Positions 243-61,462 of a DNA stretch of 64,000 bases are shown here, in pieces (position 1 is the stretch's first letter; each line of letters begins with the position of its first letter). The DNA is from Escherichia coli. Its GTDB lineage: Bacteria; Pseudomonadota; Gammaproteobacteria; Enterobacterales; Enterobacteriaceae. The translations under genes and the position numbers were made by a program. The notes below the pieces were generated by a model. That model did not search any database and was not told the DNA's origin. It saw nothing but the letters and a program-made list of their open reading frames with translations. The stretch lies in assembly GCF_044324785.1 (NCBI RefSeq), contig NZ_CP172127.1. One strand, written 5' to 3'.

Positions 243-1439
243 ATGCTAAAAGTGTTATTGCTCTTTGTTTTGCTGATTGCGGGGATAGTGGTTGGCCCGA
301 TGATTGCCGGTCATCAGGGTTACGTGCTGATCCAGACCGACAACTACAATATTGAAACCAGCGTCACTGGCCTGGCGATTATTTTGATTCTGGCGATGGT
401 AGTGCTGTTTGCCATTGAGTGGCTACTGCGGCGGATCTTCCGCACTGGCGCGCACACCCGTGGGTGGTTTGTCGGACGTAAGCGTCGCCGTGCCCGTAAG
501 CAGACCGAACAGGCGCTGCTGAAACTGGCGGAAGGCGATTATCAGCAAGTTGAAAAGCTGATGGCGAAAAATGCCGATCACGCTGAACAACCGGTGGTGA
601 ACTATCTACTGGCTGCCGAAGCCGCGCAACAACGTGGTGATGAAGCACGCGCCAACCAACATCTGGAACGCGCAGCGGAGCTGGCCGGCAACGACACAAT
701 TCCGGTAGAAATCACCCGTGTACGTCTGCAACTGGCCCGTAATGAAAACCATGCAGCACGTCACGGCGTTGATAAGCTGCTGGAAGTTACGCCACGCCAT
801 CCGGAAGTATTACGTCTGGCGGAACAGGCGTATATCCGCACAGGTGCATGGAGTTCGCTGCTGGATATCATCCCATCAATGGCGAAAGCCCACGTTGGCG
901 ATGAAGAACATCGTGCAATGCTGGAACAACAGGCATGGATTGGCCTGATGGATCAGGCGCGCGCCGATGACGGTAGCGAAGGTTTGCGAAACTGGTGGAA
1001 AAACCAAAGCCGGAAAACGCGTCATCAGGTGGCGTTACAGGTGGCAATGGCGGAACATCTTATTGAATGTGACGATCATGATACTGCTCAGCAAATTATC
1101 ATCGACGGCCTGAAACGCCAGTATGATGATCGTCTGCTGCTGCCGATCCCGCGTCTGAAAACCAATAACCCGGAACAGCTTGAAAAAGTGCTGCGCCAGC
1201 AAATCAAAAACGTCGGCGATCGCCCGCTGTTGTGGAGCACACTGGGTCAGTCGCTGATGAAGCACGGAGAATGGCAGGAAGCATCGCTCGCCTTCCGCGC
1301 AGCGCTGAAACAACGTCCGGACGCCTACGATTACGCATGGCTTGCCGACGCGCTGGACAGACTGCACAAGCCGGAAGAAGCCGCAGCGATGCGTCGCGAT
1401 GGCTTGATGTTAACGTTGCAGAACAACCCGCCACAGTAG
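243..1439 (+). CDS. hemY: HemY, 398 aa inner-membrane TPR-like protein
   Basis: 398 aa ORF with N-terminal hydrophobic segments; length and position after hemX match E. coli HemY. Confidence 0.93.
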   Translation: MLKVLLLFVLLIAGIVVGPMIAGHQGYVLIQTDNYNIETSVTGLAIILILAMVVLFAIEWLLRRIFRTGAHTRGWFVGRKRRRARKQTEQALLKLAEGDYQQVEKLMAKNADHAEQPVVNYLLAAEAAQQRGDEARANQHLERAAELAGNDTIPVEITRVRLQLARNENHAARHGVDKLLEVTPRHPEVLRLAEQAYIRTGAWSSLLDIIPSMAKAHVGDEEHRAMLEQQAWIGLMDQARADDGSEGLRNWWKNQSRKTRHQVALQVAMAEHLIECDDHDTAQQIIIDGLKRQYDDRLLLPIPRLKTNNPEQLEKVLRQQIKNVGDRPLLWSTLGQSLMKHGEWQEASLAFRAALKQRPDAYDYAWLADALDRLHKPEEAAAMRRDGLMLTLQNNPPQ

Positions 1440-1449
1440 TTCTTTCTCA

Positions 1450-1471
1450 CCCGGAGGCAAGCACCTCCGGG
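1450..1471 (+). terminator. GC-rich hairpin just after hemY stop, candidate hemY terminator
   Basis: CCCGGAGG / CCTCCGGG stem with 6-nt loop 11 nt after the stop; T-tract is weak. Confidence 0.4.
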
Positions 1472-1486
1472 ACCTTTCTGATACAT

Positions 1487-1693
1487 AAAAAAACGCCTGC
1501 TCTTATTACGGAGCAGGCGTTAAAACAGGTCTGTATGACAACAAGTGGGTGCTTCACTCAACGTTGTGTCCATGGTGTCTGATGAGGCATAAGCGACATC
1601 TGTCAGTGGACGATAAGCACCGTAAACGGCTCTGCGTCATTCCGGAGTTTATGAGGCACTAAGGCGAACATAAGAGATGGAATGAGCATCTAC
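1487..1693 (-). ncRNA. glmZ: GlmZ small RNA (about 207 nt) with intrinsic terminator at its 3' end
   Basis: Minus-strand sequence begins GUAGAUGCUCAUUCC and ends in a hairpin (stem 1493-1502 / 1511-1520) plus U7, matching the recalled GlmZ sequence; location between hemY and aslA matches the known locus. Confidence 0.8.
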
Positions 1694-2117
1694 TCGTTTA
1701 TTATGCCACAGAGAACCGGGAAATAACATCCCTTAACACTTGTTATGAGATAATTCTGTAATCCTCTTTGCTTCCTGAGTAATAACTTCCTGAGTGAATA
1801 TTTCTCCTGCGCACGATTCTACACATATATATAATGAATAATAAAAGTCATTCAATTAATAACATATATATTAATTGCCGTTAAAACTAAAAACAGCATC
1901 AATAATCAACGCGATATAACATCACCGCCTTACATATCACCTGCGCCAGAGGTAGGATTGAAAACGCTCTCCTGATTTTCCAATTCATTTTCTGGATAAA
2001 TAAATAATTTATTTTTATCACTATTATTTATGCAATCATCCTGTCAGGGAGAGGGATCTCAATTATCAATGCTTAATTACGTCAACATTTTGACGACATG
2101 AAACCGGAGCATTTTGC

Positions 2118-3773
2118 ATGGAATTTTCGTTTTCACCCAAACTTCTTGTTGTGGCTGTCGCCGCCGCTCTTCCACTCATGGCCAACGCAGCAGATACCCC
2201 GTCAACCGCCACCGCACGCAAAGGCTTTGCCGGATACGATCACCCAAACCAGTATCTGGTTAAACCGGCGACCACTATTGCCGACAACATGATGCCGGTG
2301 ATGCAGCATCCTGCACAAGACAAAGAAACCCAGCAGAAGCTGGCAGAACTTGAGAAAAAAACCGGTAAGAAACCGAACGTGGTTGTTTTCTTGCTGGATG
2401 ATGTGGGCTGGATGGATGTTGGCTTTAACGGCGGCGGCGTGGCGGTGGGTAACCCTACACCAGATATCGACGCCGTTGCCAGCCAGGGGCTGATTTTAAC
2501 TTCGGCGTATTCTCAACCGAGTTCTTCCCCAACCCGCGCCACGATTCTTACCGGACAATACTCCATCCACCACGGCATTCTGATGCCGCCAATGTACGGG
2601 CAACCGGGCGGTCTGCAAGGGTTAACCACTCTGCCGCAGTTGCTGCACGATCAGGGCTACGTCACTCAGGCCATCGGGAAATGGCATATGGGGGAAAACA
2701 AAGAGTCGCAGCCGCAGAACGTTGGCTTTGATGATTTCCGCGGCTTTAACTCGGTATCCGATATGTATACCGAATGGCGTGATGTTCACGTCAACCCGGA
2801 AGTCGCCCTGAGCCCGGATCGTTCTGAATACATCCAAAAACTGCCGTTCAGCAAAGATGACGTTCATGCCGTGCGCGGCGGTGAACAGGAAGCCATTGCC
2901 GACATTACGCCGAAATATATGGAAGACCTGGATCAACGCTGGATGGAATATGGCGTTAAGTTCCTCGACAAGATGGCGAAGAGCGATAAGCCTTTCTTCC
3001 TCTACTACGGCACTCGCGGCTGTCACTTCGATAACTACCCAAATGCGAAATATGCGGGTAGCTCTCCGGCGCGCACCTCTTACGGCGACTGCATGGTGGA
3101 GATGAACGATATCTTCGCCAATCTGTATAAAGCACTGGAGAAAAACTGTCAGCTTGATAACACGCTGATTGTGTTCACCTCTGATAACGGTCCGGAAGCC
3201 GAAGTTCCGCCGCACGGTCGCACACCGTTCCGCGGTGCGAAAGGTTCTACATGGGAAGGCGGCGTTCGTGTGCCAACCTTCGTTTACTGGAAAGGCATGA
3301 TCCAACCGCGTAAATCTGACGGCATTGTCGATCTGGCGGATCTCTTCCCTACGGCGCTGGATCTGGCGGGGCATCCTGGGGCGAAAGTAGCGAATTTAGT
3401 ACCGAAAACCACCTTTATCGATGGTGTGGACCAGACATCTTTCTTCCTGGGAACAAATGGTCAGTCTAACCGTAAGGCCGAGCACTACTTCCTCAACGGT
3501 AAACTTTCTGCTGTGCGTATGGATGAGTTCAAGTATCACGTCCTGATCCAGCAACCGTACGCGTATACCCAGAGCGGGTATCAGGGTGGATTCACCGGCA
3601 CAGTAATGCAAACGGCGGGATCGTCGGTGTTTAACCTGTACACCGATCCGCAGGAAAGCGACTCCATCGGCGTGCGCCATATCCCAATGGGTGTACCGCT
3701 ACAGACCGAAATGCACGCGTATATGGAGATCCTGAAAAAATATCCACCACGCGCGCAGATTAAATCTGATTAA
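2118..3773 (+). CDS. aslA: Arylsulfatase-family protein AslA, 551 aa with signal peptide
   Basis: 551 aa ORF; N-terminal signal-like segment and sulfatase-type motifs (LLDDVGW, sulfatase fold); length matches E. coli AslA. Confidence 0.92.
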
Positions 3774-3809
3774 GCCGGCGCTATCGCTACATCGGGCCAC
3801 ACTGACCTT

Positions 3810-3839
3810 GCCGGATGCGGCGTGAACGCCTTATCCGGC
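3810..3839. repeat. REP (repetitive extragenic palindromic) element
   Basis: GCCGGATGCGGCGTGAACGCCTTATCCGGC matches the E. coli REP consensus; lies between convergent aslA and aslB. Confidence 0.75.
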
Positions 3840-3851
3840 AATCAACCGCAG

Positions 3852-3876
3852 GCGGCCACAAAATGGCCGCTTTTTT
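3852..3876 (+). terminator. Intrinsic terminator after aslA, overlapping the aslB stop
   Basis: GCGGCCA / TGGCCGC stem with CAAAA loop followed by TTTTTT. Confidence 0.6.
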
Positions 3877-5110
3877 ACTTATTCACCACCATCAAATGCG
3901 CCTGCATAATGTCGCTGGCCGGACGACCGTGCGCCAGCAAATCAGCCATTGCTTTAAGATATGGCGGTAGATGGCGGAAATAACGCTGATACCCGGCACA
4001 CAAATAATTCAGCCCGGGTTTGCCGCTGGCATCGAGCATAAAGCGGTGTTTCGGACAGCCTCCCCAGCACGCTTTTAACACGTTGCAACTGCGACACTGC
4101 GCCGGTAACTGCTTAAATTTATCTTCACCAAACACCTGCTGTTGCGGGGAATCGATCATTTCTGCAATTGTTTGCTGGTGCATATTCCCCAGCCGATATT
4201 GCGGATAAACATAGTGATCGCAGGCGTAAACGTCGCCGTTGTGCTCAACAATCACCGAGCGCCCACAGGTTGGCTGATGATGGCAAACCGCACCTGGCGC
4301 ACCGACAAAATTGGCAAACGTCCATTCGATATTCATCACGAAAATCTTGCCGACGTCGCGTTTAATCCAGTGGTCGAATATCGCCACCAGAAATTCACCA
4401 AATTCATCGGGGCGCACCGACCATTCCGTCAGTTCGCCCTGAATATCGCCAGGCGCATGCAATTTCAGTCCATCGCGGGCAGCTGTTTCATCAGCCAGAC
4501 GCTCGACCACCGGAATAAACTGGATGAATTCCACTCCCGCATCGCACAAAAAATCATAAACCTGCAACGGTTGCTGCGCGCTGGTGCGGTTGACGCAGAC
4601 CAGCACGTTATAGTCGACATGATGTTTTTGCAGGAGCGTCAGGGCACGCATCACCAGCTTATGCGTTGGTCTGCCGCCTTTGGTCACGCGATATTGATTG
4701 TGGATCTCAGCCGGACCATCCAGCGATAACCCAACAAGAAAATGATTTTCTGCCAGAAATGCACACCATTCGTCATCAAGCAGAACGCCGTTAGTCTGGA
4801 AGCTGTTACTTATCTTCCTGCCAGCACCATATTTCGCCTGTAGCACCACGGCACGGCGGTAAAAATCCAGCCCGAGTAACGTTGGTTCGCCACCCTGCCA
4901 GGTAAAAGCCACTTCGTTTTGGGTTTCGCTGGCAGCGATATAGTGACGGACATACGCTTCCAGCGTGTCATCGTCCATATGAGTGACTGGCTTTTCGCGG
5001 TAAAGGGATTGTTTTTCGAGATAAAAACAGTAGTCACAGTTCAGATTACAATCGGAACCGCTCGGTTTCGCCATCACATGAAAAGCACGCGTTGGAACCT
5101 GTTGCAGCAT
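3875..5110 (-). CDS. aslB: Anaerobic sulfatase-maturating enzyme homolog AslB (radical SAM), 411 aa
   Basis: ORF with CxxxCxxC radical-SAM motif (CNLNCDYC). Start placed at ATG 5108-5110 (MLQQVPTRAF...) to match the recalled 411 aa; the ORF track start at 5140 is 10 codons longer. Confidence 0.88.
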   Translation of the reverse strand: MLQQVPTRAFHVMAKPSGSDCNLNCDYCFYLEKQSLYREKPVTHMDDDTLEAYVRHYIAASETQNEVAFTWQGGEPTLLGLDFYRRAVVLQAKYGAGRKISNSFQTNGVLLDDEWCAFLAENHFLVGLSLDGPAEIHNQYRVTKGGRPTHKLVMRALTLLQKHHVDYNVLVCVNRTSAQQPLQVYDFLCDAGVEFIQFIPVVERLADETAARDGLKLHAPGDIQGELTEWSVRPDEFGEFLVAIFDHWIKRDVGKIFVMNIEWTFANFVGAPGAVCHHQPTCGRSVIVEHNGDVYACDHYVYPQYRLGNMHQQTIAEMIDSPQQQVFGEDKFKQLPAQCRSCNVLKACWGGCPKHRFMLDASGKPGLNYLCAGYQRYFRHLPPYLKAMADLLAHGRPASDIMQAHLMVVNK

Positions 5111-5221
5111 GGTCGCTCCTTGCCTGAAGTCATCCTTCAATAAGTTAAGGGCGAAATCATACCGTGGCGCAATGAGTTATTACGGGCGTTTATTGCGAAG
5201 GGAAAGTGACGAAATGCACAG

Positions 5222-5250
5222 AAAACAAAAAACCCCGCCGAAGCGGGGTT
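5222..5250 (-). terminator. Intrinsic terminator of the argX-hisR-leuT-proM tRNA operon
   Basis: CCCCGC / GCGGGG hairpin followed on the minus strand by a U-rich run, directly 3' of tRNA-Pro. Confidence 0.7.
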
Positions 5251-5256
5251 CAAAAT

Positions 5257-5333
5257 TGGTCGGCGAGAGAGGATTCGAACCTCCGACCCACTGGTCCCAA
5301 ACCAGTTGCGCTACCAAGCTGCGCTACTCGCCG
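5257..5333 (-). tRNA. proM: tRNA-Pro (anticodon UGG)
   Basis: 77 nt; reverse complement reads CGGCGAGUAGCGCAGCUUGGUAGCGCAACUGGUUUGGGACCAGUGGGUCGGAGGUUCGAAUCCUCUCUCGCCGACCA; cloverleaf and anticodon loop read manually. Confidence 0.95.
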
Positions 5334-5375
5334 AAATACTGCTTTTTGAATTTTTAGTTCAATTCTTTAAAGTCG

Positions 5376-5462
5376 TGGTGCGAGGGGGGGGACTTGAACC
5401 CCCACGTCCGTAAGGACACTAACACCTGAAGCTAGCGCGTCTACCAATTCCGCCACCTTCGC
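5376..5462 (-). tRNA. leuT: tRNA-Leu (anticodon CAG), long variable arm
   Basis: 87 nt, 5' GCGAAGGUGGCGGAAUUGGUAGACGCG..., anticodon loop CUUCAGG, ends CCA. Confidence 0.95.
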
Positions 5463-5482
5463 ATTGTCACAACTTCTAATAA

Positions 5483-5559
5483 TGGGGTGGCTAATGGGAT
5501 TCGAACCCACGACAACTGGAATCACAATCCAGGGCTCTACCAACTGAGCTATAGCCACC
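5483..5559 (-). tRNA. hisR: tRNA-His (anticodon GUG) including the extra 5' G-1
   Basis: GUGGCUAUAGCUCAGUUGGUAGAGCCCUGGAUUGUGAUUCCAG...CCA read on the minus strand. Confidence 0.95.
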
Positions 5560-5616
5560 ACTACAAATCTTGTTACGCGGTATTACTACCACCGCAGCTC
5601 AAGCGCCGGGACTAAA

Positions 5617-5693
<77 letters not shown>

Positions 5694-5714
5694 TTAGCGC
5701 CGTTGCGGGGGTGG

Positions 5715-5743
5715 ATAATACGGACTTCCCACCCCTCTGTCTA
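5715..5743 (-). promoter_or_regulatory. Candidate sigma70 promoter of the tRNA operon (-35 TAGACA, 17 bp spacer, -10 TATTAT, GC-rich discriminator)
   Basis: Hexamers read on the minus strand about 20 nt upstream of argX; AT-rich UP-like tract further upstream. Confidence 0.5.
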
Positions 5744-5795
5744 GTCCCTTTTTAAATAAATTGCGCGTTTGGTTACGGTTTGTGCGTTTTGCTGC

Positions 5796-7181
5796 TTATT
5801 CCTCCAGTTTATGCGCTTTACCGTGGCGATTAAGCCCAAAAACTTTATAAATCGCCGTCACCGCCAGCATAAAGATGATGCCGACAAACAGCGACATACG
5901 CGTATCTTCATTAAAGTACATGCCGATCAAAACGCAAATCAGGAATGCCATTGTTACGTAGTTGGCCCACGGGAACAGGATTGAGCGGAACGGATGGCTG
6001 GCAATCGCCGCTTTATGCGCACGACGAAAACGCAGCTGGCTTATCAATATCACAAACCATGGCACCATCCCCGGAAGCACGCTGGCACTGTAGACGTAGA
6101 CAAACACACGCTGCGGATTGGGAATGACGTAGTTCAGGCATGAGCCAATTAACAGGATAGCAATAGATACTGCCACACCCGCAACCGGTACGCCGTGACG
6201 GGAAACTTTCGCCATCGCCGCCGGTAACTGACGGTTTTTCGCCAGTGCGTAGAGCATACGTCCGCAACTGTACATGCCGCTGTTACAGCCAGAGAGCGCA
6301 GCCGTCAGCACCACAAAGTTGATAATGCCCGCCGCTGCGGTAATACCGATTTTGGCGAAAGTCAGTACGAACGGGCTGCCGTTACTGCCTATTTCATTCC
6401 ACGGGAAGATGGTGACGATAACGAAAATCGCGCCTACGTAGAAAATCAGGATACGCCACAACACTTTGCCTACGGCACTGCGCAGCGTCACCTGCGGATT
6501 CTTCGCTTCACCGGCAGTAATGCCAATCAGCTCCACGCCCTGGTAGGACGCCACCACAATACACAATGCGGTCAGGAACCCTTTCCAGCCACCCGCAAAG
6601 AAACCGCCATGCTCTGTGAGATTGCTAAAACCAATCGACTGCCCGCCATTGCCAAAACCAAAGAAAATCACGCCCAGGCCAATGACAATCATCACGATAA
6701 TCGTGGTGACTTTGATCATCGCGAACCAGAACTCGATTTCGCCGTACAACCGCACCGCCGCCAGATTCGCCAGCGCCACCAGCGCCACCGCGATCAATGC
6801 GGGTATCCACTGCGCCATCTCCGGGAACCAGAACTGGACATAAACGCCAATGGCGGTGATTTCTGAGATCCCCACCGCCATCCACATAAACCAGTAAGAC
6901 CAGGCGGTGAGATAACCAAAGAACGGGCTCATATAACGATGCGCGTAAACGGCGAACGAACCGGTAACCGGTTCGAGGAACAACATTTCGCCCATTGAAC
7001 GCATGATGAAAAAGACGAACAGCCCGGCGATGATATAGGCCAACAATACGGATGGCCCGGCCCATTTCAGGGTACTGGCGGCCCCCATAAACAGGCCGAC
7101 GCCAATGGTGCCCCCCAGGGCGATGAGTTCGATATGTCGAGCTTCCAGCCCACGCTGTAGCTCTGGTTTGTTATCTGCCAT
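5796..7181 (-). CDS. yifK: APC-family amino acid permease YifK, 461 aa
   Basis: 461 aa polytopic membrane ORF with amino-acid permease signature; synteny next to the wec cluster. Confidence 0.9.
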
Positions 7182-27378: not shown

Positions 27379-27416
27379 AGGAAAATCGCTCAATGAAAGT
27401 CGGGAGGGGAAAATAA

Positions 27417-27746
<330 letters not shown>

Positions 27747-61184: not shown

Positions 61185-61462
61185 CGATCTACTGTGGATA
61201 ACTCTGTCAGGAAGCTTGGATCAACCGGTAGTTATCCAAAGAACAACCGTTGTTCAGTTTTTGAGTTGTGTATAACCCCTCATTCTGATCCCAGCTTATA
61301 CGGTCCAGGATCACCGATCATTCACAGTTAATGATCCTTTCCAGGTTGTTGATCTTAAAAGCCGGATCCTTGTTATCCACAGGGTAGTGCGATCCTAATA
61401 AGAGATCACAATAGAACAGATCTCTAAATAAATAGATCTTCTTTTTAATACCCAGGATCCCA
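61185..61462. other. oriC: Chromosomal replication origin oriC
   Basis: DnaA boxes at 61193-61201 (R4), 61232-61240 (R3-like TTATCCAAA), 61267-61275 (R2, TTATACACA) and 61373-61381 (R1); three AT-rich 13-mers at 61395-61438; about 15 GATC sites within roughly 320 bp. Confidence 0.92.

Follow-up and report, generated by a model that had tools for sequence, protein, structure and literature searches.

An A/T-rich spacer of Escherichia coli that accompanies aslA rather than glmZ and may be subject to redundant repression by H-NS and StpA

The small RNA gene glmZ and aslA, encoding a putative arylsulfatase, are divergently oriented within the 64-kb stretch of E. coli DNA analyzed here (in the following, the window). 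The spacer between the two genes harbors a long A/T-rich tract on its aslA side, and aslA is followed by the convergent aslB, encoding an anaerobic sulfatase maturase, and a tRNA operon (for an overview see Table 1). An earlier, sequence-only reading of this DNA had named glmZ and aslA as the genes on either side of the tract. Both names are correct, as indicated by the full-length Rfam match of glmZ and by an aslA open reading frame whose start agrees with the RefSeq annotation; the glmZ copy of the window is, in addition, 100% identical to that of K-12. The left end of the spacer is set by the 5' end of glmZ, and, from the coordinates of glmZ and aslA, the tract therefore falls completely within the spacer. 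A stretch of 761 bp that includes the spacer (window 1440-2200) occurs in 5,425 of the 5,426 complete E. coli genomes searched, 5,414 of which carry 80% of it or more. The spacers of K-12 and of the window are 94.6% identical.

Table 1. Genes, promoter elements and sequence features at the glmZ-aslA locus, in window coordinates.
Feature	Position	Strand	Remarks
hemY	243-1439	plus	
glmZ small RNA gene	1693..1487	minus	Rfam RF00083, 218.4 bits, full-length model 1-214
glmZ-aslA spacer (divergent)	1694-2117		424 bp, equal in length to K-12 3986008-3986431
glmZ σ70 core promoter, -1 to -40	1694..1733	minus	outside 1740-2117
glmZ -10, CATAAT	1705..1700	minus	our own reading of the sequence
glmZ -35-like, ATGTTA	1729..1724	minus	inferred; 18-bp spacer to -10
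Promoter-like TTAACA-18-TGTAAT	1733..1762	plus	faces aslA; published computational prediction (PMC3946193, Table 1)
A/T-rich tract	1740-2117		378 bp, aslA side of the spacer
Hypervariable segment	1794..1833		includes TATATATA; identity within Escherichia ~0.50
TATATATA	1826-1833		once in the tract
First A/T core	1834..1920		5-25% G+C per 20 bp; ends in conserved block CAGCATCAATAATCAACGCG
ACATATATAT	1862-1871		second (TA)n run
TCAATAATCAA	1899-1909		within first A/T core
ATTGAAAACGCTCTCC	1957..1972	plus	copy 1 of inverted 16-mer pair, inside the GC island
Second A/T core	1975..2040		18% G+C; between the two 16-mers
TGGATAAATA	1993-2002		tract's only near-match to the H-NS high-affinity 10-mer, 2 mismatches
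ATTGAGATCCCTCTCC	2048..2063	minus	copy 2 of inverted 16-mer pair
TCAATTATCAA	2059-2069		overlapped by ATTGAGATCCCTCTCC
Short palindrome/hairpin CGTCAA-CATT-TTGACG	2080..2095	plus	11 nt upstream of the aslA Shine-Dalgarno
aslA Shine-Dalgarno and start	2106..2120	plus	GGAG 2106-2109, ATG 2118
aslA (putative arylsulfatase)	2118..3773	plus	551-aa ORF
aslB (anaerobic sulfatase maturase)	about 3875..5140	minus	convergent with aslA; RefSeq start shorter
proM-leuT-hisR-argX tRNA genes			beyond aslB

The tract had been described as strongly A/T-rich in contrast to its surroundings, and this was borne out: its G+C content is 0.328 compared to 0.521 for the 64-kb window, and the flanking genes have 52-57% G+C. 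A windowed G+C profile, as suggested in the sequence-only reading, identified the tract as the deepest 378-bp trough in the 64 kb. Only 0.09% of all 378-bp windows are this low, every one of them is located at the glmZ-aslA locus, and the lowest, with a G+C content of 0.320, is at position 1721. The composition is mosaic, as a 'GC island' of 0.52 at 1921-1974 separates stretches of 0.26 (1800-1920) and 0.18 (1975-2040). Regions silenced by H-NS and StpA are characterized by DNA whose A/T content considerably exceeds the genome average along 100-200 bp or more, at a promoter or close to it; here, A+T amounts to 67% over 378 bp and reaches 74% and 82% in the two cores. The spacer was further ranked against the intergenic regions no shorter than 60 bp in an annotated record that is 98.2-98.3% identical over 64 kb (strain 2012C-4221, equal to the window over the 761-bp query, with an indel of ~730 bp across the 64 kb). 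Its G+C content of 0.337 is the second lowest of these 28 regions, whose mean is 0.433, and no other region of low G+C content is as long; the asnA-asnC intergenic region (151 bp) is lower still at 0.325. The spacer is rich in A/T even by intergenic standards, yet not extreme. This degree of A/T-richness is at the lower end of what is usual for promoter spacers in E. coli and is not exceptional.

The tract is also enriched in particular short sequences. AATAA, which had been reported as a repeated motif, occurs seven times compared to 1.6 expected from composition-preserving shuffles (P = 0.0006), and TpA steps occur at 10.1 per 100 bp compared to 4.2 in the window, a 2.4-fold difference. The 'TATATATA runs' of the earlier description were slightly overstated. 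The tract has TATATATA once, along with ACATATATAT as another (TA)n run; TATATATA is a strain-specific feature, situated in the least conserved segment and missing from K-12. The high-affinity 10-mer of H-NS (TCGATAAATT) is not enriched, with one 8-of-10 match in the tract compared to 1.0 expected from shuffles. The DNA curvature that the sequence-only reading had put forward as a check did not lend it support: in a periodicity test, which was used rather than a wedge-angle model, no phasing of AA/TT at 9.5-12 bp was found in the tract (P = 0.29-0.60), and because of this lack of 10-11 bp phasing no strong intrinsic curvature is predicted. Curvature and a nucleation motif, which are supportive but not obligatory in H-NS-bound regions, are not indicated for the tract by these measures.

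Conservation within the spacer is unevenly distributed. Between the window and K-12, 5.4% of the spacer positions are different, compared to 10.5% of the third codon positions in hemY and 15.0% in aslA; since the spacer differs less than these positions, most of the tract is under purifying selection. Among the 23 differences, 11 are clustered in 1804-1847 and five in 1920-1926. The best-conserved blocks within Escherichia are 1954-1973 and 2054-2073 (both 0.98), followed by 1734-1753 (0.91) and 1894-1913 (0.90), and the block next to aslA, 2094-2117, is conserved at 0.92-0.93. The two 0.98 blocks hold a pair of inverted 16-mers (inverted repeat I2), which bracket the core of 18% G+C and are complementary at 13 of 16 positions. 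The 16-mer pattern has only two matches in the 64 kb, although it was derived from these two; the 16-mer was present in five of the six Escherichia species-level loci that hold the spacer, and both copies in only two. A long-range RNA stem formed by the two copies was considered and rejected, as neither E. albertii nor strain E69 shows a compensatory change, and the RNA stem was dropped in favor of two putative DNA sites. The sequence TCAATWATCAA occurs twice in the tract, and its copies and the inverted 16-mers are candidate protein sites.

Several other possible contents of the spacer were dismissed. A minus-strand open reading frame of 29-40 aa (1899-2021) contains a stop codon in other Escherichia, and the ATG at position 2098 lacks a Shine-Dalgarno sequence and is not in frame with aslA. 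An unannotated structured RNA was rejected, as Rfam gave no match in 1694-2200 at E-values up to 1. So was the scar of a mobile element: no phage similarity was found, and the plasmid matches were chromosomes filed as plasmids.

The sequence-only reading had proposed that the tract may also hold upstream regulatory sites of glmZ, and on this point published work argues against it. The tract begins at glmZ -47, upstream of the σ70 core promoter. In E. coli, a glmZ fragment from -40 to +32 is sufficient, 5' deletions to -40 leave full activity so that the region upstream of -40 is dispensable, and mutation of the -35 and -10 elements reduced or abolished expression (Göpel et al., PMC3045617). 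In the same study, GlrR did not bind to glmZ -424 to +32 in band-shift assays, and glmZ expression in E. coli was unaffected by ΔglrR and ΔrpoN. In the window, no σ54 -24/-12 element (TGGCAC-N5-TTGCA-like) was present at the glmZ start, the IHF sites that accompany the -24 element in σ54-type promoters were likewise absent, and the spacer contained no match to the GlrR site TGTC-N10-GACA. Thus, glmZ has a self-contained constitutive σ70 promoter between -40 and +1, and the tract has no demonstrated role in its transcription. The glmZ-aslA spacer routinely serves as a neutral integration site, which we count in support of the tract being unneeded for glmZ.

Genomic SELEX with σ70 holoenzyme yielded a peak in the spacer at 3984454 in older K-12 coordinates, with a relative height of 0.98 (PMC3946193). 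The hexamers TTGAGA-17-GATGAT, which have been published for 'glmZ', were rejected as its promoter, as they are located ~340 bp from the proven start. Taking the offset between the two K-12 coordinate versions to be 1,977 bp, as we presume, the SELEX peak is placed at NC_000913.3 3986431, which is glmZ +1, one base before the annotated start at 3986432, and not at the promoter-like sequence facing aslA. A possible FNR site was also set aside: the sole nearby ChIP-seq peak is located inside glmZ, its motif scores weakly, and only one of four peak callers detected it.

The association of the tract with its two neighbors was followed across Enterobacteriaceae by a search anchored on HemY, which retrieved 80 species-level loci; 73 of these were scorable, having glmZ plus 170 bp or more of the DNA upstream of it. 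In nine of the 73, aslA-aslB adjoins glmZ (five Escherichia species-level genomes, Pseudocitrobacter, two Kluyvera and one gut isolate). In all nine, the G+C content of the 300 bp upstream of glmZ is 28-37%, and σ54 motifs and GlrR sites are lacking. Where aslA is missing (64 loci), this G+C content ranges from 35 to 53%, and 46 of the 64 loci carry a TGGCAC..TGCA σ54 element, usually together with TGTC-N10-GACA near -150 and -214. Across the 73 loci, the tract hence goes with aslA and not with glmZ. A/T-richness is kept in every aslA-bearing genus, while most of the spacer sequence is unalignable outside Escherichia.

The distance from glmZ to proM is about 3.5-3.6 kb in the seven aslA-bearing loci with proM in the fetched DNA and 138-338 bp in nearly all of the 64 loci without aslA; in Klebsiella, the glmZ-proM spacer measures 176 bp. 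On the glmZ side, homology to taxa without aslA reaches from the glmZ start ~17 bp upstream in the Salmonella type and ~37 bp in the Klebsiella type: 13 of 17 positions match between glmZ -17 to -1 and Salmonella-type promoters, and -37 to -1 aligns with Klebsiella. A second patch of ~45 bp is found beside the proM terminator. As homology is confined to these two edges, the tract forms the front of an aslA-aslB segment of ~3.5 kb located between the glmZ core promoter and the proM terminator (roughly window 1734-5210). In two taxa, a duplicated tRNA-Pro is present at the segment junction. Promoter type and cassette are not strictly coupled, since the E. coli-type σ70 promoter is also present in Klebsiella and Raoultella, which lack aslA, and in these data a gain of the segment is indistinguishable from repeated loss.

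Toward aslA, a scan with the σ70 consensus gave no plus-strand site and no more hits than in shuffles, and a looser scan gave weak candidates only. The published prediction TTAACA-18-TGTAAT would result in an aslA 5' UTR of about 350 nt; its block is conserved at 0.73-0.91 within Escherichia, with the weaker TTAATA/TGCAAT in other Escherichia species. Judged by these scans, no strong or convincing σ70 promoter faces aslA, and its expression may therefore require relief of silencing or an activator as well.

The sequence-only reading held aslA to be poorly expressed behind a promoter silenced by H-NS. Low expression is evident from published RNA-seq data of wild-type MG1655, where aslA reaches about 78-127 normalized counts (PMC12460168, Supplementary Table 1) compared to about 950-6,100 for the nearby hemX, hemD, yifK/thrP and wecG. 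In the same data set, which like all expression data used here stems from K-12 and not from the strain of the window, the log2 fold change of aslA is +0.71 in Δhns (P = 9e-5, 1.6-fold), -0.26 in ΔstpA (P = 0.04), +2.78 in Δhns ΔstpA (P = 8e-145, about 7-fold) and +2.68 upon addition of netropsin (P = 3e-129, about 6.4-fold). An unchanged aslA level in an hns background, together with a lack of H-NS occupancy, had been named as evidence against silencing; the level changed, albeit by a small amount. As the effect is small in Δhns and large in Δhns ΔstpA, repression would be redundant between H-NS and StpA. The four nearby genes decrease in both mutant strains, the log2 values in Δhns ΔstpA being -0.62 for hemX, -1.31 for hemD, -1.17 for wecG and -4.44 for yifK, and upon netropsin they show a smaller rise (hemX +1.18, hemD +1.38) or none (wecG flat, yifK -4.53; PMC12460168). 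Of aslA and the four neighbors checked, only aslA responds in this way, and it does so under two independent means of removing A/T-binding silencers. De-repression as expected of an H-NS/StpA-silenced region is therefore seen for aslA in published K-12 data; however, loss of H-NS and StpA and netropsin are highly pleiotropic, so that the effect on aslA could be indirect.

Binding data are less uniform. Table 1 of the genomic-SELEX study marks the aslA-glmZ spacer 'HNS', whereas its Supplementary Table S2 lists the same spacer without this mark (PMC3946193). In PMC12460168, aslA is unmarked in the column for horizontally transferred genes (HTG) and in the 'HIN' column, which is not defined there and apparently refers to overlap with H-NS-dependent chromosomal hairpins (CHINs). 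If H-NS binds, it would recognize general richness in A/T and TpA, and neither curvature nor a nucleation motif would be involved. With ~0.4 kb the tract is short, and its flanking genes have 52-57% G+C; we count both against H-NS silencing. The silenced promoter of the sequence-only reading is thereby upheld in part, by the increase of aslA RNA in Δhns ΔstpA and upon netropsin, while the high-affinity motif is not enriched, no strong curvature is predicted and the SELEX tables disagree. Taken together, the expression data support redundant repression of aslA by H-NS and StpA, and we infer that both act directly on the tract. Other reports on aslA comprise an indirect effect of RpoE in E. coli K1 (PMC9147696) and entries in mutation lists only (PMC4288151, PMC9765446).

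Based on these results, we consider it probable, with some reservation, that the tract serves aslA of E. coli as its 5' regulatory spacer and belongs to the ~3.5-kb aslA-aslB segment, which is bounded by the glmZ core promoter on one side and the argX-hisR-leuT-proM operon terminator on the other. The A/T cores would recruit H-NS and StpA, which, acting redundantly and together with a weak promoter, would hold aslA at a low basal level. Expression would then additionally depend on relief of silencing or on an activator, acting through the conserved blocks near aslA, which may carry the promoter and the activator or anti-silencer sites.

Another explanation would be a generic spacer between divergent promoters, whose A/T-richness would stem from the usual composition of promoter and regulatory DNA and from relaxed constraint on non-coding sequence, with the aslA promoter being weak or activator-dependent and the effects of H-NS, StpA and netropsin being indirect and pleiotropic. 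We regard this as possible but unlikely. In its favor, intergenic regions average 0.433 and the asnA-asnC region is even lower than the spacer, no strong σ70 promoter faces aslA, Δhns alone raises aslA only 1.6-fold, and an indirect RpoE effect on aslA has been reported in E. coli K1. The missing HNS mark in Table S2, the unmarked HTG and 'HIN' columns, the lack of motif enrichment and of A-tract phasing point in the same direction. Arguments against this explanation are the same ~7-fold rise upon two different perturbations of silencing, specific to aslA among the genes checked at the locus, the tract being the longest and deepest trough in the window, and A/T-richness being kept in all aslA-bearing genera although the sequence is mostly unalignable.

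Control might alternatively occur after initiation. A long A/U-rich aslA leader would start at the distal promoter TTAACA-18-TGTAAT (1733-1762), back-to-back with glmZ, and would be regulated by premature termination and/or by occlusion of the Shine-Dalgarno sequence through a conserved structure at 2068-2113. The distal promoter is predicted in PMC3946193 and is located in a block whose conservation extends beyond glmZ -40. The hairpin upstream of the Shine-Dalgarno sequence is maintained: E. albertii keeps it by a change on both sides, strain E69 has G-U pairs, and in the window, where K-12 has the stem GTCATCA-TTT-TGATGAC in another register, substitutions at 2085 and 2094 remake a perfect stem in a shifted register. 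In addition, AAUGCUU pairs with the GGAGCAUU region in four of five minimum-free-energy folds. Nevertheless, we consider this explanation improbable, as the SELEX RNA polymerase peak sits at glmZ +1, the hexamers are weaker in other Escherichia species, folding of the region is like that of shuffles (z-scores -0.46 to +0.24), the invariant outer helix offers no covariation to test, and Rfam gave no match. Still less credible, and in fact very improbable, is that the tract carries activating or regulatory sites of glmZ, be it for GlrR, IHF, σ54 or another factor. Such sites would be in line with most Enterobacteriaceae, which have a σ54 promoter and GlrR sites at about -150 and -214, with the conservation of the glmZ -41 to -80 block within Escherichia, and with a preprint (PMC11230228) reporting that glmZ has an AraC motif within -100 and that ΔaraC affects a -200 to +10 glmZ reporter. 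The AraC effects, however, differ in sign between plasmid, genomic-mutant and knockout assays (PMC11230228). For GlrR, σ54 and IHF, this explanation is largely refuted by the full activity of deletions to -40, the lack of GlrR binding and the unaffected expression in ΔglrR and ΔrpoN (PMC3045617), and neither TGTC-N10-GACA nor TGGCAC..TGCA occurs in any aslA-bearing locus.

Two further suggestions are linked, which we find doubtful when taken jointly. The arrival of aslA-aslB, or its exchange between genera, may have displaced the ancestral GlrR/IHF region, and the 16-mers and the TCAATWATCAA pair may be operators of an anti-silencing regulator. If true, displacement by the cassette would help to explain the constitutive, σ70-only synthesis of GlmZ in Escherichia, and the candidate regulator at the 16-mers would counter H-NS/StpA silencing under a host or anaerobic signal.

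The locus itself, the promoter analysis for glmZ, the spacer's HNS flag and the expression data have been published before; new are the strict co-occurrence of the tract with aslA-aslB across genera, the map of constraint and a few candidate sites. The findings attach a plausible silencing mechanism to aslA, a gene with a stated link to the invasion of brain endothelium in E. coli K1 (PMC9147696), and they indicate that a spacer used for 'neutral' integration is under purifying constraint and probably regulatory. Since the σ54/GlrR region is missing wherever aslA-aslB adjoins glmZ, a structural change accompanies the lost two-component control of GlmZ, which is one modest addition to the published work on GlmY/GlmZ. 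The practical value is small, and the findings neither overturn current views nor open a long-standing question.

Compared to known systems, the tract takes the same position upstream of glmZ as the activator region of the σ54/GlrR(QseF)/IHF-dependent glmY/glmZ promoters (PMC3045617), and the last ~17 bp before the E. coli glmZ start are homologous to the Salmonella-type promoter (13/17). In contrast to these promoters, the -24 element, the IHF sites and TGTC-N10-GACA are absent from the window, and the A/T tract replaces the activator region without being one itself. The aslA-aslB segment also resembles tRNA-linked cassettes, as it adjoins the proM end of a tRNA operon in some genera only, has an A/T-rich leader and is accompanied by a duplicated tRNA-Pro at the junction in two taxa. 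Unlike in tRNA-linked islets, searches of aslA-aslB revealed neither an integrase nor att sites in direct repeat, nor any similarity to mobile elements; its coding G+C content is genome-typical, and the segment is fixed in E. coli (5,414/5,426).

The remaining comparison is that with H-NS/StpA-silenced regions such as bgl, proU, hdeAB/gadA and csgD. The tract differs from these in having neither predicted curvature nor a high-affinity motif and in the disagreement of the SELEX tables on binding; furthermore, the coding sequences are not A/T-rich here, and aslA is unmarked in the HTG and 'HIN' columns. The rise of aslA, ~7-fold, is modest compared to that of the gad, hde and app genes (10^2-10^4, PMC12460168). 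As in silenced regions, however, a short tract rich in A/T and TpA precedes a weakly expressed gene, aslA is non-essential and patchily distributed among genera, and its RNA increases when both proteins are removed or displaced by netropsin. The small effect of Δhns and the large effect of the double mutant on aslA correspond to the pattern of the StpA-backed loci described in PMC12460168.

The E. coli-type σ70 promoter of glmZ is common to Klebsiella and Raoultella, as determined by comparison of the 45 bp upstream of glmZ in the corresponding hemY-anchored loci (L054, L048 and L064-L069), in which the alignment extends to about position -37. The same loci are devoid of aslA-aslB, and the distance between glmZ and proM amounts to 176-189 bp. 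Therefore, the type of glmZ promoter and the presence of the aslA-aslB cassette, the segment of about 3.5 kb between the glmZ core promoter and the proM tRNA terminator, are not strictly linked. The slot between glmZ and proM was also found to be occupied by an insert of about 3.6 kb lacking aslA in locus L070 (Enterobacteriaceae MAG UBA7338), indicating that other cargo is accepted at the same position. The region upstream of glmZ in this locus has retained the σ54 motif and contains one exact match to the GlrR site.

At the tRNA side of the cassette, two copies of tRNA-Pro(UGG) are located beside aslB in Kluyvera genomosp. 1 (L035, 10930-11181) and in the Enterobacteriaceae isolate L080 (10950-11202), compared to a single copy in E. 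coli; the doubling may represent the trace of a rearrangement at this junction. Within the cassette, the gap between the convergent genes aslA and aslB (window 3780-3870) has a G+C content of 62%, as measured in the annotated record of strain 2012C-4221, and harbors the REP-like palindromic sequence GCCGGATGCGGCGTGAACGCCTTATCCGGC.

Three repeated or palindromic features of the spacer between glmZ and aslA are listed below.

Repeats and palindromes in the glmZ-aslA spacer (window coordinates)
Feature	Position	Strand	Remarks
Inverted 16-mer pair ATTGARAWCSCTCTCC, candidate sites	1957-1972 and 2048-2063	+ and -	Nearly invariant
Palindrome/hairpin	2080-2095		5' of the aslA Shine-Dalgarno sequence
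Two imperfect 15-mer copies in tandem, CTTCCTGAGTAATAA / CTTCCTGAGTGAATA	1771-1800		glmZ -78..-107

The inverted 16-mers are separated by 75 bp, flank the second A/T core of the spacer (1975-2040, 18% G+C) on both sides, and fall within the two 20-bp blocks of the spacer that are most highly conserved in a comparison inside Escherichia. The hairpin is retained across the genus in differing forms: in the window allele, two substitutions relative to K-12 re-register the stem, and in E. albertii both sides are changed with pairing preserved. The 15-mer duplication also occurs in K-12 and is poorly conserved elsewhere in Escherichia.

An FNR ChIP-seq study has listed a weak peak at K-12 position 3984609 (coordinates of that paper), labelled "5' of glmZ/hemY". 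Of the four peak callers, one detected it, and its motif scores poorly. We therefore regard it as a probable artefact, arising from strong transcription in this region. If an offset of 1,977 bp between the two K-12 coordinate versions is right, the peak is located inside glmZ, at about window 1540.

Elsewhere in the window, the mioC-mnmG gap (about 61190-61385) contains two perfect DnaA boxes, TTATCCACA, and thus the replication origin oriC appears to be located within the window. Between rep and ppiC (about 27394-27452), about 730 bp are missing relative to strain 2012C-4221, where this additional sequence carries a gene for a PemK/MazF-family toxin. At the 3' end of hemX (120-200), an ACCTGC hexamer occurs in 13.5 perfect tandem copies encoding a Pro-Ala repeat. 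The copy number varies between strains, hemX being 1182 bp long in K-12 and 1206 bp in 2012C-4221, and the mutation list of a resequenced strain includes a (GCAGGT)8->9 change.
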